The translations under genes were made by a program, and so were the position numbers. The notes below the pieces were generated by a model. The model was not told the origin of the DNA and made no database searches. It saw nothing but the letters and a program-made list of their open reading frames with translations. Below, piece after piece: positions 26,870 to 37,477 of a stretch of 37,713 nucleotides of DNA. Numbering within the stretch: the first letter of the stretch is position 1; the number at the start of each line of letters is the position of its first letter. The DNA is from a virus (taxonomy: Duplodnaviria; Heunggongvirae; Uroviricota; Caudoviricetes). The stretch is from IMG/VR virus record IMGVR_UViG_2802429240_000007, one strand, 5' to 3'.

Positions 26870-27052
26870 TCAGTTCTGCGAACACTGCCGGATGCCATCA
26901 ACAATCCGGCAGACCTGCGCCGCCGCGTCAAACAGCTGGCCCGCCCTGTTAATGTCTGTGCATCCCACCGGAAGCAACATCACCAGAAACAGGGCCAGAA
27001 CACAGCGCGCGGTTTTACGTGGCGTTCTGTGGGTCCAGTGCTGACGCGTCAT
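26870..27052 (-). CDS. Putative lipoprotein, possible spanin component
   Basis: 60 aa; hydrophobic stretch followed by lipobox-like LPVGC; overlaps the endolysin stop by 4 nt. Confidence 0.4.
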   Translation of the reverse strand: MTRQHWTHRTPRKTARCVLALFLVMLLPVGCTDINRAGQLFDAAAQVCRIVDGIRQCSQN

Positions 27053-29305: not shown

Positions 29306-29719
29306 TTATTGTTTACGTGCTGCTCTGGCTCGTTTTCTGGCGTCTTTTGTCAGCGCCACCATCACCCCGAACAGTTGATCATCTGTCAGCCATTCGATCA
29401 CATGTTGCTTATACATGTGAGATGCCAGTCCTTCCGCATATGCCCAGGAACGACCGGCATCAGCCAGCAACGCTTCAATTTTGGATAATACCGATTTTCT
29501 GCTCATTGCCACACGGGGGCGGCGACCTTTACCGGCGGGGGCTTTACGCGGAAATCCCTGTTCGTGCATGTATTCCCGGATGATGCGCAGTTCATCGAGG
29601 TTGCAGCGTGTGGTGCTGGTTTTACCGGTCAGTCGGGCCAGCGTCTGGCGATAAAGGGCATCATCCCACCCCAGATACGCCTGACCGGCTTTAATGGCCC
29701 CGATCATCTTTTTCAGCAT
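29306..29719 (-). CDS. gemA: GemA-like regulatory protein
   Basis: Start taken at the MLKKMIGAIKAGQ ATG (29719); character of the GemA family; precedes mor. Confidence 0.65.
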   Translation of the reverse strand: MLKKMIGAIKAGQAYLGWDDALYRQTLARLTGKTSTTRCNLDELRIIREYMHEQGFPRKAPAGKGRRPRVAMSRKSVLSKIEALLADAGRSWAYAEGLASHMYKQHVIEWLTDDQLFGVMVALTKDARKRARAARKQ

Positions 29720-30005
29720 GTTTGTTATCCTCAAAACGCACGGTAAAACGTGAAACGCCAATCCCTGACAGGAACGCGGCGGCACGGTCAAGAGACAGCC
29801 ACGTCTTGTAATCGCCACGGCGTTCCTGTAGAAAATAGGACACCCCGGCGTGGCGATTCACAGCGAAGAGGTGATACACACCACCGAACCGCTGCACGAC
29901 GAACTCATCCACGCCACCGCTTTCAGCCTGTTGCCTGAAAGCTGCCATTCCGATTTGTTCAATCTTCATAATGACCAAAACACTACTTTTGGCAGACCAA
30001 AACAT
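29691..30005 (-). CDS. Hypothetical early protein
   Basis: 104-aa ORF whose 3' end overlaps the gemA start. Confidence 0.35.
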   Translation of the reverse strand: MFWSAKSSVLVIMKIEQIGMAAFRQQAESGGVDEFVVQRFGGVYHLFAVNRHAGVSYFLQERRGDYKTWLSLDRAAAFLSGIGVSRFTVRFEDNKHAEKDDRGH

Positions 30006-30049
30006 ATGTTTTGGTCTGCGCTTGATTGTTATTTGCTCAATGCGGTGAA

Positions 30050-30301
30050 TTATTTATCACCATCACCGAGCGTCACTTCATGACAGGATGGCGTGCCATT
30101 TTTCCCCGCAGAGCAATAAATAAACTTATCCCCGCTGGTCATGGTGGCGCTTCCATCATCACAATGCGTAATGGTTTTGATTAAATTTCTCCTTACCACG
30201 CAATGCCCACTTTCCGCATCATCAGAAGCCTTGTTAGTTGTCACACAAAGCGCAATACCCGTAACAATCAGAGCGATAATAAAAAGGTCAGCCCATCTCA
30301 T
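30050..30301 (-). CDS. Cys-rich putative lipoprotein (84 aa)
   Basis: Start MRWADLFIIALIVTGIALC, with a lipobox-like IALC; mature part has 5 further cysteines. Confidence 0.45.
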   Translation of the reverse strand: MRWADLFIIALIVTGIALCVTTNKASDDAESGHCVVRRNLIKTITHCDDGSATMTSGDKFIYCSAGKNGTPSCHEVTLGDGDK

Positions 30302-30400
30302 ATTTTCACCCCGCGTTATCAGGAACGTCGATTTCAACCGTTACGGTGATAGTTTTCATCGAGTTGTTACTCCGTGATTCAGAAAATTCCATACCGAGCC

Positions 30401-30811
30401 TCAGTATGTAAAATAGACAGTTGCCACGCCGTTATAGTGATCAAACGATACGGCGTTTACTTCATAGCTGGCCGGGAGCTTCGAGCCGAGAACGTATCCG
30501 GGCCACGTTTTCCATGGAATTTCTCTGCTCTCACCATCGCCATATACCGTACATCCCAGTGAGCCTACAGCTTCAGAAGAACGCTTACCGCACGTTATGA
30601 ACCCCAGATTTTGCTTACTGTCCTTAACAGAAATCGGGAGAGCACTGGCTGATGCATTAGCAGCACGCTGTGCCTGTTGGTTTGCGATATTCGCAGAGTT
30701 CGCAGCAGCTGCGGCAGCAGTGGTCGCAGCAGTAGATGCCACAATAACTGCTGAAGCCTGCGCCTGTTGGGTAATGGTCAGCAATGCCGCCACAAAAATC
30801 ATTTTCTTCAC
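30401..30811 (-). CDS. Secreted protein with Ala-rich linker (136 aa)
   Basis: Signal peptide MKKMIFVAALLTITQQAQA; AGGAGG RBS 6 nt before the GTG at 30811; low-complexity Ala/Thr/Asn segment then a ~80-aa C-terminal domain with 2 Cys. Confidence 0.5.
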   Translation of the reverse strand: MKKMIFVAALLTITQQAQASAVIVASTAATTAAAAAANSANIANQQAQRAANASASALPISVKDSKQNLGFITCGKRSSEAVGSLGCTVYGDGESREIPWKTWPGYVLGSKLPASYEVNAVSFDHYNGVATVYFTY

Positions 30812-30823
30812 CTGGTACCTCCT

Positions 30824-31003
30824 TTACATACCGTGATTTTTCCAGCGGTTTTGTGCTGCACTTCTACGTCGCCCGGCACCGTAAAAATGCGTTGGTAACC
30901 ATCGTGCAAGGCCAGAAGGCGCATAACGAATAACAAGCCGATTTGAGATACGGATAAGCTGCCCGGGTTTTGCTATCAGCAGTCTTGCTTTACGGTTTTT
31001 CAT
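30824..31003 (-). CDS. Small basic protein B (59 aa), paralogue of A
   Basis: MKNRKARLLIAKPGQLIRISNRLVIRYAPSGLARWLPTHFYGAGRRRSAAQNRWKNHGM; ATG overlaps the stop of ORF A (ATGA); below the 60-aa cutoff of the ORF track. Confidence 0.35.
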   Translation of the reverse strand: MKNRKARLLIAKPGQLIRISNRLVIRYAPSGLARWLPTHFYGAGRRRSAAQNRWKNHGM

Positions 31004-31176
31004 CGTACTGCATACCCTTTCTTCCGCCTGTTCTGTGACGCGCTAGGCTTACGCTTTGCGGCAAAAGCCACCTGACCAAATGGATGGAGCACCGCTATCT
31101 TATGGTTGCTGATAACCAGCTCCACCACACGCACAGGTCGCTGTAAAAAAAGTCGTTTTGCTTTACGGTTTTTCAT
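31000..31176 (-). CDS. Small basic protein A (58 aa), paralogue of B
   Basis: MKNRKAKRLFLQRPVRVVELVISNHKIAVLHPFGQVAFAAKRKPSASQNRRKKGYAVR; AGGAGA RBS 8 nt upstream; first 22 nt identical to ORF B. Confidence 0.35.
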   Translation of the reverse strand: MKNRKAKRLFLQRPVRVVELVISNHKIAVLHPFGQVAFAAKRKPSASQNRRKKGYAVR

Positions 31177-31180
31177 CGTT

Positions 31181-31369
31181 TCATTCTCCTGTATTTACTA
31201 CTGACTCTGCACTGTCAGCCCTGCGGCGCTCCTGAAGTTCCAGCATTGCGGCCCGGAAATCCTGCCACCATTCCTCATCGGCAACGGGGGTGTTCCGCTC
31301 CAGCACCTTGTCCGCATCGGCAATCAGTCTGGTCAGGCTCTTATCGCTTATTCTGGTTTGCTGGTTCAC
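31181..31369 (-). CDS. Hypothetical small early protein
   Basis: 62-aa ORF, coupled to the upstream gene. Confidence 0.4.
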   Translation of the reverse strand: MNQQTRISDKSLTRLIADADKVLERNTPVADEEWWQDFRAAMLELQERRRADSAESVVNTGE

Positions 31370-31590
31370 TGCGTCGCCTCCTGTTTTGCCACTTTAAACG
31401 CCCGTAACATCGGGACCGTTTTACCGGTGATGACGGTTATCATTAAAATGCCGCCACTGCTTTCGTGTATCGCGTCAGGAGCCACAAACAAAGCCGCATC
31501 CACAACCCGCCAGTAACGGCGAAATTCCCAGAACCAGCAGGAGATAGTGATAACTGCGGTACCATTGCGTTCATAAAACTCAATATTCAT
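31366..31590 (-). CDS. Hypothetical small early protein
   Basis: 74-aa ORF in the early-operon array. Confidence 0.4.
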   Translation of the reverse strand: MNIEFYERNGTAVITISCWFWEFRRYWRVVDAALFVAPDAIHESSGGILMITVITGKTVPMLRAFKVAKQEATQ

Positions 31591-34283: not shown

Positions 34284-34523
34284 TCATTGCCATACGACGG
34301 TGCAGCCGTCGATACAGGACGTTTTCACCACGCGGCGCAGGCCGCTGAATGTCTGGATGATTTCCGTTACCGGCCATACAGGACCACCCACGGGCGGGCA
34401 GGCATAAACCACAGGTAAACGGTGATGCTGTCCCGTTACACGACCGCCAGTGGTGTGGATGGCCACACGGGCACGGGAACGGACGGCGTTAATGGTCTGC
34501 TTGTCCATCGTCTTGTTCTCCAT
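34284..34523 (-). CDS. Hypothetical small early protein
   Basis: 79-aa ORF; start overlaps the B stop. Confidence 0.4.
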   Translation of the reverse strand: MENKTMDKQTINAVRSRARVAIHTTGGRVTGQHHRLPVVYACPPVGGPVWPVTEIIQTFSGLRRVVKTSCIDGCTVVWQ

Positions 34524-35416
34524 CAGTGAATTAACATTTCTGCGAATTTATCAATGGCCTGCACACTGACCGGTGCATCGCTGATATCACAAATCCGGTA
34601 CACACCGCGCGCCAGTTTGAAGAGGCGGCGGGCATTACCCAGCGAGCGTGCGTAAAGCGCCTCGCTGATTTCCGGTTCTGCTGCTTCCGGCATCAACCCG
34701 GTAGCTATCTGGTTAAAATCTTCCTGCGACAACGTATCGCCCAGGTTAAGCGCCAGCGCCACACGGCTGTATAACTGGGCGAACTCACCACGACGCCCCT
34801 TAAGGTTAATCAGAAGACGAGGCATACCCGCCAGGACAACCCCGATACCCGCTTTGTCATGCAGACGACGCAGAACCTCCAGTGCGCGATAGGGGAGCAG
34901 TTCAGCCTCGTCCACCATCAGCAGGCGACCGGAATCACGCAGTTCGCGCACACAGGCATCTATCAGTTCGTGAATGTTGCCGCGAACCTTTACCCCCAGC
35001 TGGCGGCACAACTCCTCAAGCAGTGTTCTGGCTGTATAGCCCGGGTCAGCCTCAATCAGGACCGCATCCCGGTTTCTGGCGGCGTATTCACGCAGAATCA
35101 TTGTTTTGCCAAGACCTGCCGCGCCATACAGTACGCAGATTTCACATTCCAGGTGAGCATAGGCCAACACCTCCAGTCCTTTGGCAGCCATACCGGTGGC
35201 AACAAATTTCGCTTTAATACGGCGGCTGTTTTCCTTTTCCCGCTCACGGGTCACAAAGGCAGAAATGCGTTCTTCAATATCAGCCATATCGCCCTGATAT
35301 TTACCCTGTAAATACTGGTTGATAACGGCGCTGCTACGACCAATAGCACGGGCGACGTGGGTTTGCGTATAGCCGCGACGGGCCATTACGTCATTTAATT
35401 GCGTAATTAAACTCAT
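34523..35416 (-). CDS. DNA transposition ATPase (Mu B-like)
   Basis: 297 aa; N-terminal HTH-like segment; Walker A GAAGLGKT; Walker B-like LLMVDEAE. Confidence 0.85.
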   Translation of the reverse strand: MSLITQLNDVMARRGYTQTHVARAIGRSSAVINQYLQGKYQGDMADIEERISAFVTREREKENSRRIKAKFVATGMAAKGLEVLAYAHLECEICVLYGAAGLGKTMILREYAARNRDAVLIEADPGYTARTLLEELCRQLGVKVRGNIHELIDACVRELRDSGRLLMVDEAELLPYRALEVLRRLHDKAGIGVVLAGMPRLLINLKGRRGEFAQLYSRVALALNLGDTLSQEDFNQIATGLMPEAAEPEISEALYARSLGNARRLFKLARGVYRICDISDAPVSVQAIDKFAEMLIH

Positions 35417-35434: not shown

Positions 35435-37477
35435 TTAACGGTTGTTTGTGCCGTTTTTCTTTAAATTGCGCTCGCGTTCAGATGCGAATAAATAAAGTTC
35501 TTCTTTTTCCTTTTTCTCCTGGCGTTCCAGTCCATATCCCAGATTAAACTCAGGCTTCTGCGTAATAGCCGGGGTAAGCTCGCGTTTAGCCTCTTCGATT
35601 TTCTGCGCGGCCCGTGCAATGCGGCCTCTGACGCGTTTCTCCAGTTTTTGCTCGATAACTGGTTTAGCGAAGGCATCAACCTTGTTACCGTTCCAGATGG
35701 CATCGCAGATATAAGAGCCATCAGCCCGCCGGACAATGACACTGTTTGCATCATGAATATCGTAACTGACCCTGACTTCATTCCCGTGCTCTGCGGCCAG
35801 CTCATACGAGTAATAAATATTGTTGAATAACTGAATTTCCCCGCGAAATGTTTTGCGCGTCACTTCCGGTCTGAACATTTCATGCAGTTCTTCCGGCGAC
35901 AGGAAATCAATTTCAACATTCTGCTCTTTTATCAGTTTCCGGCGATACGCTGCCGGGCTGTAATATTCGCCATCCTCTTTGCGGGGAAGGCTGCTGTGTG
36001 GCCGGTTGTTATAGCGTCTGACCTCCAGTTCTATGGCTGCCATCAGTTGCTCAAAGGTGGGGATTTCATCCCTCGCCTTAACCTGCCGTTTTGTCAGTTC
36101 TTTCCCTTTGTGGGTGGCCTTAATGGCTGACTGCATAATCCGTTGCTGCATCATTACGGTTTCCTTGTCTGCTCCCTTTGAGCAGTACGTCTGGAAACTC
36201 AGGGCCACATCCCGGGGAATTTCCTTGTTAAGCCTTTCAATCACCCCGCGCCCCTGCGGGTTACCTGGTATCCCCGTGTGATGTTCCACACCCAGCCGGG
36301 GGAGAATCCCGGTAATATCGGCATCAAGAACCCGGTTTTTTTCGCCGCCCCCGTTATCGGAGTAATAAATCAGCGGTATCCCGTGCTGTGCCATGCCGTA
36401 ACGCAACGCATCAGCAACGGCTATCACGTTCTCCGACAGGGACAGCGACCAGCCCACAACAAAGCGTTGCCCCGCATCCATAACCAGCGTCACTTCTGGC
36501 CGGAAAATATTGCCGGTCAGTGGGTTAAACGCGGTCATCTTCATACAGTGACCATCCCCGACCCATACCGCATTAACCGGTAGCGATGTCCAGTCGCGCC
36601 GCACAAAGGGATTGAGCGAACGCCAGGCTGAACCGGTGGAGCGGAAACGCTCCTTAACAATCACCGGGACGTTGCTTAACACCCGTCTTACTGCGTGAAC
36701 GGAAGGCAGTGCTGCCAGCATTCCCGCATCATTCGCGTGTTTTTCATGCCACCAGGCTGAAAACTCGCGATACGCATATTCAACGGTCGGGCGCTTCCAT
36801 GAGCGATAGAACATAAAGAAATCGCTCAACCACCAGACCTGCTCCCACGGAGTTCCCTTATGATGACCGGGAGCCAGTAACGCCAGTAACTGATTGGCAT
36901 CACCGCGCGCCATCAGCCAGGCGGAATACCATTCCTGTAAACTCCCTGTACTGACGCCAGTTCGCTTACCCTGCCGGGCATTGGCGGTATTACCTGCCAC
37001 AATAACGCGCTCTGGCAAAGCCTCCTGGCGGATACCATCAACGATGTGTTTTATCGCTGCCGTCCTGGACATTCCTGCGTATTCACGCAGTTTATGCACT
37101 TCGGTAGCCAGCAATATCCGCGCATCAGCGATGGCCTTTTGCTTGTCGGTCAGTGCCTGAACTTCGCGTAATGCCAGTTCCGGGCATTTGACCATCACTT
37201 CCAGTTCATCGCGAACGGTAACGTTTTTAACTGCCTTCTGCTCAACCACGGCAGGCAGTTGTGCATCTTCCAGAACCTGATGGGTCAGGCGCTTACGTAA
37301 AACCTTCTGCGCTTCAGCGGGCAGACAGTCGATGTGATACTCGAATGCTTTGGTGCCTTCACGCTTGCGCTTCCATTCCGGGTGCGTCTCTGTGATCCGA
37401 TTGAGCGTCCAGCGCACCCCCTGAACTGTACCGGGCAAACCAGGAAGACCGGCCAGCTCATTGGCTGAATAAAACAT
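35435..37477 (-). CDS. DDE transposase (Mu A-like)
   Basis: 680 aa; N-terminal DNA-binding region and central catalytic core of MuA-like size and layout; directly between ner and B. Confidence 0.9.
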   Translation of the reverse strand: MFYSANELAGLPGLPGTVQGVRWTLNRITETHPEWKRKREGTKAFEYHIDCLPAEAQKVLRKRLTHQVLEDAQLPAVVEQKAVKNVTVRDELEVMVKCPELALREVQALTDKQKAIADARILLATEVHKLREYAGMSRTAAIKHIVDGIRQEALPERVIVAGNTANARQGKRTGVSTGSLQEWYSAWLMARGDANQLLALLAPGHHKGTPWEQVWWLSDFFMFYRSWKRPTVEYAYREFSAWWHEKHANDAGMLAALPSVHAVRRVLSNVPVIVKERFRSTGSAWRSLNPFVRRDWTSLPVNAVWVGDGHCMKMTAFNPLTGNIFRPEVTLVMDAGQRFVVGWSLSLSENVIAVADALRYGMAQHGIPLIYYSDNGGGEKNRVLDADITGILPRLGVEHHTGIPGNPQGRGVIERLNKEIPRDVALSFQTYCSKGADKETVMMQQRIMQSAIKATHKGKELTKRQVKARDEIPTFEQLMAAIELEVRRYNNRPHSSLPRKEDGEYYSPAAYRRKLIKEQNVEIDFLSPEELHEMFRPEVTRKTFRGEIQLFNNIYYSYELAAEHGNEVRVSYDIHDANSVIVRRADGSYICDAIWNGNKVDAFAKPVIEQKLEKRVRGRIARAAQKIEEAKRELTPAITQKPEFNLGYGLERQEKKEKEELYLFASERERNLKKNGTNNR

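Follow-up and report, generated by a model that had tools for sequence, protein, structure and literature searches.

Two small genes with predicted envelope-targeted products in the early operon of a Mu-like prophage

Superinfection exclusion and takeover of the envelope are usually mediated by small exported phage proteins, of which, to our knowledge, only a handful have been characterised so far (Sp, Imm, Llp, Cor, SieA and gp15). Two adjacent genes in the early region of a Mu-like prophage, referred to here as orfA and orfB, raise the question of whether their products are of this kind and whether the two belong together. Both families are already on record, as unnamed PHROGs and RefSeq hypothetical proteins. 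What we add is the correction of orfB from a lipoprotein to, most likely, a protein with a signal anchor, evidence that the two genes are independent cassettes and that orfA extends across phage types, and a confident predicted model of an orfA domain without a relative in the PDB or BFVD. The outcome is a good description of two hypothetical proteins, which is groundwork and not the discovery of a mechanism.

The prophage and its early region

The window, by which we mean the whole 37,713-nt stretch of DNA that was analysed, is a complete Mu-like transposable prophage on the minus strand. Its genes run from a MuA-like transposase and an AAA ATPase through small early genes to GemA and Mor, followed by two holins, a GH108 endolysin and the late genes. 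orfA and orfB have the MuA- and MuB-like genes upstream of them and are themselves positioned upstream of gemA and mor, and Pfam domains in this early region include GemA (PF06252), Mor (PF08765) and DUF2786; the location inside an early operon, as claimed in the original prediction, is thereby borne out. The transposase is at most 48% identical to any phage transposase in the phage collection searched, and for this reason the prophage appears to represent an uncharacterised lineage. A prophage of E. coli 20KM0223N (L001) is 97% identical, and PGAP/RefSeq calls both genes there with identical boundaries under the name "hypothetical protein". This confirms the two ORFs and their orientation as first placed (Table 1), with the single amendment that orfB encodes 83 aa plus the stop and not 84 aa.

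Table 1. Coordinates of the features discussed, in positions of the window.
Feature	Position	Strand	Basis or remark
MuA-like transposase	35435-37477	-	
AAA ATPase	34523-35416	-	
orfA Shine-Dalgarno, AGGAGG	30818..30823	-	directly after the TAA of the upstream gene (30824-30826)
orfA, predicted 136-aa secreted protein, phrog_8805	30401..30811	-	ORF; PGAP CDS in L001
orfA predicted signal peptide, residues 1-19, MKKMIFVAALLTITQQAQA/SA (slash, cleavage site)	30755..30811	-	rule-based analysis
orfA Ala/Thr/Asn/Gln-rich linker, residues 20-59	30635..30754	-	alignments
orfA C-terminal domain, residues 60-136 (77 aa), predicted alpha/beta	30404..30634	-	
orfB cassette, approximate extent	30045..30318	-	DNA alignment vs L002
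orfB, predicted 83-aa membrane-anchored or exported four-cysteine mini-protein, phrog_8391	30050..30301	-	ORF; PGAP CDS in L001
orfB N-terminal hydrophobic segment, residues 6-20 (LFIIALIVTGIALCV), putative signal anchor	30242..30286	-	KD19 2.24
orfB ectodomain, residues 25-83	30053..30229	-	alignments

Among the ORFs of this early-operon stretch, orfA and orfB are the only ones with hydrophobic N-terminal targeting segments, in line with the earlier view that both products are directed to the envelope. Their export and topology, as assigned by rules, are in our estimation highly probable. Neither protein had been recognised at the outset, and neither matches a characterised family now: searches against Pfam, NCBIfam and PDB sequences returned no match, a PADLOC defence-system scan gave no meaningful one, and no literature was found on the accessions or PHROG ids. 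The best PHROG matches are phrog_8805 for orfA (E=1.6e-83) and phrog_8391 for orfB (E=1.4e-44), both of unknown function. The PHROG matches are to the unknown-function families 8805, 8391 and 11462 only, with no known superinfection-exclusion family among them.

Two other sets of small genes in the window deserve mention. Tandem paralogues at 30824-31003 and 31000-31176 (both minus strand) encode basic proteins of 58-59 aa assigned to phrog_1380 (unknown function), and at the DNA level they share 93-97% identity with stretches of Stx-converting phages, TL-2011b/c and P1-like phages. Immediately following the GH108 endolysin, a 60-aa ORF at 26870-27052 (minus strand; ..VLALFLVMLLPVGC) is a candidate spanin-type lipoprotein with an atypical Pro at -3.

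orfA and its family

The orfA gene starts with GTG, 6 nt after the AGGAGG element, and is taken to be operonic because 12 nt separate it from the upstream gene. A hairpin past its stop (30390-30408) is no better than shuffled sequence (z=-0.84). The protein had been described as a 136-aa product with a clear signal peptide and an Ala-rich linker, and this description holds. We applied the Sec/SPase I criteria of a positive n-region, an h-region of 7-15 residues and small residues at -3 and -1, and orfA passes this rule-based test for a tripartite signal with the n-region MKK, the h-region MIFVAALLTIT (KD9 2.9) and a cleavage site at QQAQA/SA. The signal is predicted to be cleavable, since its maximum KD19 of 1.5 falls under the transmembrane threshold. 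By the same kind of rules, 34/34 diverse homologues have K/R in the n-region, a strong h-region and, at positions 15-30, an [ASV]-x-A site. The depositors of Klebsiella phage KLB16 annotated its homologue with "signal peptide", and one relative carries the UniRef name "Prophage exported protein".

A variation on this signal is seen in the largest P1-like clade (P0070, P0074, P0079), which has the canonical lipobox L-S-A-C at Cys17; the sister sequences P0066, P0068, P0071 and P0082 have Ser in place of this Cys. The pattern suggests that the family alternates between soluble and lipid-anchored forms, and the domain is probably lipid-tethered in the P1-like clade, which would put its action at the periplasmic face.

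The mature protein divides into two parts that differ in constraint. The linker is predicted to be helical at low confidence, is variable or missing in the lytic-phage clade, and has dN/dS values of 0.36-0.81, indicating relaxed constraint, as against 0.12-0.33 for the C-terminal domain, indicating purifying selection (both by Nei-Gojobori). Cys74 and Cys87 are invariant in this domain, as is the terminal Tyr that ends the last strand. AF2 gave a poor model for full-length orfA with 19 close homologues (pLDDT 45), and a confident one for the last 79 residues on an alignment of 41 sequences (pLDDT 88.3, pTM 0.75). In the latter model the domain has six strands and one helix, in the order beta1, short beta2, beta3-beta4 hairpin, helix, beta5 and beta6, with the chain terminating on the last strand. 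On the basis of the invariant cysteines and the predicted topology, a Cys74-Cys87 disulfide probably staples the domain.

The fold search with this model points to no relative outside the family. A Foldseek search of the PDB returned nothing convincing (best E 0.23, TM 0.37), the sole match in BFVD is itself a member of the orfA family, and no known exclusion protein appears among the fold hits listed. It may be that orfA is a remote analogue of the small periplasmic stress proteins of the DUF1471/YhcN type (PF07338: BhsA, McbA, YbiJ, YjfN, BsmA, YjfY, YdgH). Compared with these, orfA adds an extra hairpin, the cysteine pair and the Ala-rich linker; a Pfam scan for PF07338 gave no match for orfA or 41 family members, and the hhalign probability for the C-terminal domain against six bona fide DUF1471 proteins of E. 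coli was 2.9%.

The family is broad in host and phage type. Relatives fall into 56 close clusters, or 110 clusters after a profile search, which reaches about 35-50% identity in Escherichia, Salmonella, Citrobacter, Shigella, Cronobacter and Rahnella. Its distribution is patchy and cassette-like. It is present in 66 P1-like phage-plasmids of PLSDB, of which the ones listed measure about 85-100 kb and are without exception non-mobilizable, and in the P1-like phage-plasmids of E. coli and Salmonella the gene lies near hot, humD and phd-doc. The lytic Vequintavirinae phage Av-05 carries orfA at 82% nucleotide identity, and further homologues occur in the 45-kb lytic phages KW1E_UTAR and KLB16/22. 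In all of these strictly lytic phages the gene sits among small early-type genes, and in temperate elements the family is found in early or accessory regions.

orfB and its family

The orfB gene starts with an ATG preceded by GGGGTG. Its product had been described as lipoprotein-like with five further cysteines; there are in fact four beyond Cys19, five in total, and the lipoprotein assignment is not supported. The 15-residue hydrophobic segment ends in I-A-L-C, with Leu at -1 of Cys19, where the lipobox criterion, [LVI][ASTVI][GAS]-C, demands a small residue (G/A/S). I-A-L-C fails all three patterns applied (PROSITE PS51257-like, G+LPP and DOLOP), and the DOLOP pattern found both positive controls, T5 Llp (LSAC) and N15 Cor (LSGC). 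The cysteine is also not a trait of the family: it is kept only in the close Mu-like copies, and distant relatives, namely Klebsiella phage Snook gp70 (..IIPAAMA/ADNPHC) and P0065 (..ADGIARA/DD), have plain SPase-I-type cleavable signals without a signal-region cysteine. Of the two export signals that the original prediction had named, the signal peptide of orfA is thus found by rules and the lipobox of orfB is absent. Judged on these patterns, orfB is probably not a lipoprotein.

The segment would most likely serve as a signal anchor. The charges around it are net +1 before and K, D, D and E after, and by the positive-inside rule this distribution predicts an N-terminus-in, C-terminus-out orientation. 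Cleavage of the signal is also possible, in the Salmonella copy for instance behind L-C-A. We also considered a spanin pair of the Rz/Rz1 type. Spanins lie in the lysis cassette beside holin and endolysin, and the o-spanin carries a lipobox. In the window, the lysis cassette (two holins, the GH108 endolysin and small ORFs, at about 26.8-28.3 kb) is at least 1.7 kb downstream, beyond mor, and orfB lacks a lipobox, which rules this candidate out.

The predicted ectodomain is built around the invariant Cys34, Cys47, Cys63 and Cys73 and the core TITHCDDGSAT..DKFIYCS..PSCHE, with a family spacing of C-x12-C-x15/17-C-x9-C. All four cysteines are retained at about 40% identity in Snook gp70, P0064 and P0065. 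As read from these alignments, the common feature of the family is a predicted exported four-cysteine mini-domain, and lipidation is not a trait of it. Metal binding by the His-Cys dyads (HC..HC..C..CH) was considered and rejected: disulfides are the likelier state, because the charge distribution suggests a periplasmic placement and the spacing in the window copy, C-x12-C-x15-C-x9-C, is unlike that of zinc knuckles.

The orfB family is rare, with 5 clusters in a set of 5.8 billion proteins; an exhaustive profile search of 1.84 billion representatives returned 4 matches, one of them a spurious repeat protein. Relatives at about 40% identity are held by Klebsiella phages. As a side observation, two related prophages (L014:3885-4004 and L020:1352-1504) encode a peptide of 39-50 aa ending in a transmembrane segment (..ASIVSFVFGAMTERGAL), which has no counterpart in the window; the peptide overlaps the start of orfB by 4 nt, and translational coupling is therefore possible there.

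Selection on orfB depends on the depth of the comparison. Against the deepest Mu-like relative, dN/dS is 0.27 (Nei-Gojobori, p about 3e-4), and close copies diverge near-neutrally. The window copy differs from the Salmonella copy (L015) by 13 non-synonymous and 1 synonymous changes (omega about 3.8), with the invariant cysteine core spared. Diversifying selection was considered as an explanation and set aside, the ratio of 13:1 being not significant against neutrality on 83 codons. This same near-absence of synonymous change, statistically compatible with neutrality, is what could be cited for the view that orfA and orfB are decaying or spurious ORFs without function. Against it, relatives as distant as 40% identity keep the cysteines and core motifs unchanged, deep comparisons show significant purifying selection, the orfA domain folds confidently in the model and the signal peptide is kept in all clades. 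We regard decay as extremely improbable overall and as effectively refuted for orfA. Judged from sequence, orfA and orfB are real genes.

Independence, expression and possible functions

The genes had been presented as an exported pair, a view that their distribution does not uphold. orfA DNA is present in 113/5426 complete E. coli genomes, and only 7 of these 113 carry orfB as well. The prophage of E. coli Ecol_AZ146 (L002) is collinear with the window and lacks exactly the orfB cassette; the boundaries of the cassette were read by eye, MAFFT having misplaced the short L002 flank. The GC content, the lowest of the neighbourhood, is 0.43-0.44 for the cassette and 0.45 for orfB, against 0.545 for the window. 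Conversely, orfB occurs without an upstream orfA in two Mu-like prophage loci (L019, L020), in Klebsiella phages and in an unrelated phage-like contig. Because related elements can carry either gene alone, their adjacency would reflect a shared mosaic accessory slot and no two-component system. Where both genes are present, orfB always follows orfA (7/7 E. coli genomes, 3 Salmonella loci and 1 metagenomic locus), an order that is adequately explained by the shared ancestry of the prophage lineage. We are confident that the two are independent of each other.

A trace of a third gene is seen in the same slot. Between orfA and orfB, a 17-codon remnant at 30306-30359 (minus strand; MKTITVTVEIDVPDNAG, followed by a stop) matches the N-terminal part of a 61-aa ORF found intact between the two genes in Salmonella and STEC prophages (L015:3811-3996, L018:1761-1946). 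The persistence of this remnant points to cassette turnover in the slot.

These data bear on whether the two proteins could cooperate, the secreted protein acting together with a Cys-rich outer-membrane lipoprotein so as to mask a specific phage receptor. T5 Llp and the Cor protein of N15/phi80 are lipoproteins that inactivate FhuA in this manner. Both Llp and N15 Cor are of about 77-78 aa, exported and with extra cysteines, and orfB is similar to them in size and style; the adjacency of orfA and orfB in one operon, in constant order where both occur, would also fit such a cooperation. However, Llp and Cor have a true lipobox, as does the P1-like orfA clade, whereas that of orfB fails by its Leu at -1 and has no family-wide counterpart, and each gene occurs alone elsewhere. 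Membership of orfA or orfB in the Llp/Cor group was rejected, as BLASTP against T5 Llp and N15 Cor gave E values of about 1 or worse. The genomic position differs as well: llp and cor adjoin receptor-binding or tail-fibre genes, whereas orfA and orfB occupy an early accessory slot and neither adjoins a receptor-binding protein gene. Finally, orfA is 74-90% identical across phages with unrelated tails (Mu-like, P1-like, Vequintavirinae and the 45-kb phages), and nowhere do tail-fibre or receptor-binding genes adjoin it, which makes receptor masking less likely. We consider a cooperating receptor-masking pair to be decidedly unlikely.

The setting of the genes is informative as to when they would be expressed. 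A simple sigma-70 consensus scan of 29600-31400 found no promoter-like site for either gene; the lone match falls within the 3' end of orfB, with a match count inside chance expectation. Since neither gene has such a site, both are predicted to be transcribed with the early operon. The Mu early operon is silent in the lysogen. If the operon is regulated in this way, its silence, together with the presence of homologues in strictly lytic phages and in early or accessory regions of temperate elements, suggests a role in lytic growth and speaks against lysogenic conversion. The latter reading would make the proteins fitness factors supplied by a prophage or phage-plasmid (serum resistance, adhesion or biofilm, as with Bor and Lom), and the exported products, the moron-like cassettes, the low GC of orfB and the abundance of orfA in P1-like phage-plasmids of E. 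coli and Salmonella would all be in keeping with it. Set against these are the embedding of the genes in an early operon, with orfA 12 nt after its neighbour and without a promoter-like site, and again the strictly lytic homologues; on balance we think lysogenic conversion unlikely.

A structural element lies just past orfB. At 29992-30019, between the orfB stop and the start of the next gene at 29969, there is a perfect palindrome with a 12-bp stem, GCAGACCAAAAC-ATAT-GTTTTGGTCTGC. It has an RNA fold z of -5.3 against shuffles and no U-tract, is kept in L001 and is nearly kept in L002, which has no orfB. Stabilisation of the RNA, its processing or the binding of a protein are possible roles.

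Our best explanation of the whole, that of independent exported cassettes whose products alter the envelope early, is tentative, with a probability of roughly 0.4. It holds that two independent single-gene accessory cassettes lie side by side in a mosaic slot between conserved early genes and gemA/mor, and that early-operon transcription would extend to them when the prophage is induced or a cell is infected, but not while the lysogen is repressed. orfA would be exported by Sec, cleaved after AQA19 and released to the periplasm, the mature protein consisting of an Ala-rich spacer and the 77-residue alpha/beta domain with its probable Cys74-Cys87 disulfide. orfB would sit in the inner membrane by its signal anchor, N-terminus in and C-terminus out, displaying in the periplasm a beta-rich four-cysteine mini-domain of about 55 residues, probably with two disulfides. 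Each protein would then bind a host envelope component soon after lytic growth begins, and the infected cell could be made refractory to further phage entry, at a generic step rather than at one receptor.

The last of these steps is drawn from analogy with known systems. T4 Sp (Spackle) and Imm, P22 SieA and HK97 gp15 are envelope-located superinfection-exclusion proteins that block phage entry, and T4 Sp and Imm are made early in lytic infection. Like these, orfA and orfB are small, single-gene and predicted to be targeted to the periplasm or inner membrane; unlike them, they have no sequence match to the group, and none of the four stands among the listed fold hits. A second set of precedents, D3112 gp05 (Tip) and DMS3 Aqs1, are cytoplasmic proteins that act on the type IV pilus machinery, unlike orfA and orfB, which are predicted to be exported and are unrelated to them in sequence. 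Their genes are likewise small early-operon accessory genes of transposable phages, acting soon after infection, and are on record as early-operon exclusion genes of Mu-like phages; the envelope exclusion proteins Cor, Imm/Sp and SieA are listed as precedent in the same source (PMC11436027). We favour exclusion because envelope exclusion proteins are the best precedented and because Mu-like phages place exclusion genes in the early operon. As a function of orfA and orfB it is nonetheless possible rather than probable.

An alternative of similar standing is that the proteins manipulate host physiology by binding or inhibiting, in the periplasm, an envelope enzyme or a stress pathway of the host. 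Their targets could be, for example, a protease, a peptidoglycan enzyme, a periplasmic domain of the divisome or envelope stress signalling, and the effect could be conditioning of the cell or tuning of lysis timing. Host manipulation and exclusion are about equally likely, and the evidence here does not discriminate between them. A wider reading starts from the spread of the orfA C-terminal domain over at least four unrelated enterobacterial phage groups (Mu-like, P1-like phage-plasmids, Vequintavirinae and 45-kb lytic phages). The domain would be an undescribed periplasmic fold family forming a generic, receptor-independent class of exclusion or takeover proteins, with orfB as a second, independent example; we hold this to be doubtful. 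If it is true that orfA blocks a general entry step or inhibits a host periplasmic factor, its activity would bear on the host range of phages used in therapy and on how phages compete with one another in Enterobacteriaceae.

Small membrane or exported ORFs are also seen next to orfA in another phage. In KLB16, further ORFs of this kind lie 1-3 genes downstream of the orfA homologue (L006:3224-3439 and L006:3555-3728), among them one for a 57-aa product with two cysteines, and small envelope-targeted genes seem to cluster in such early regions.
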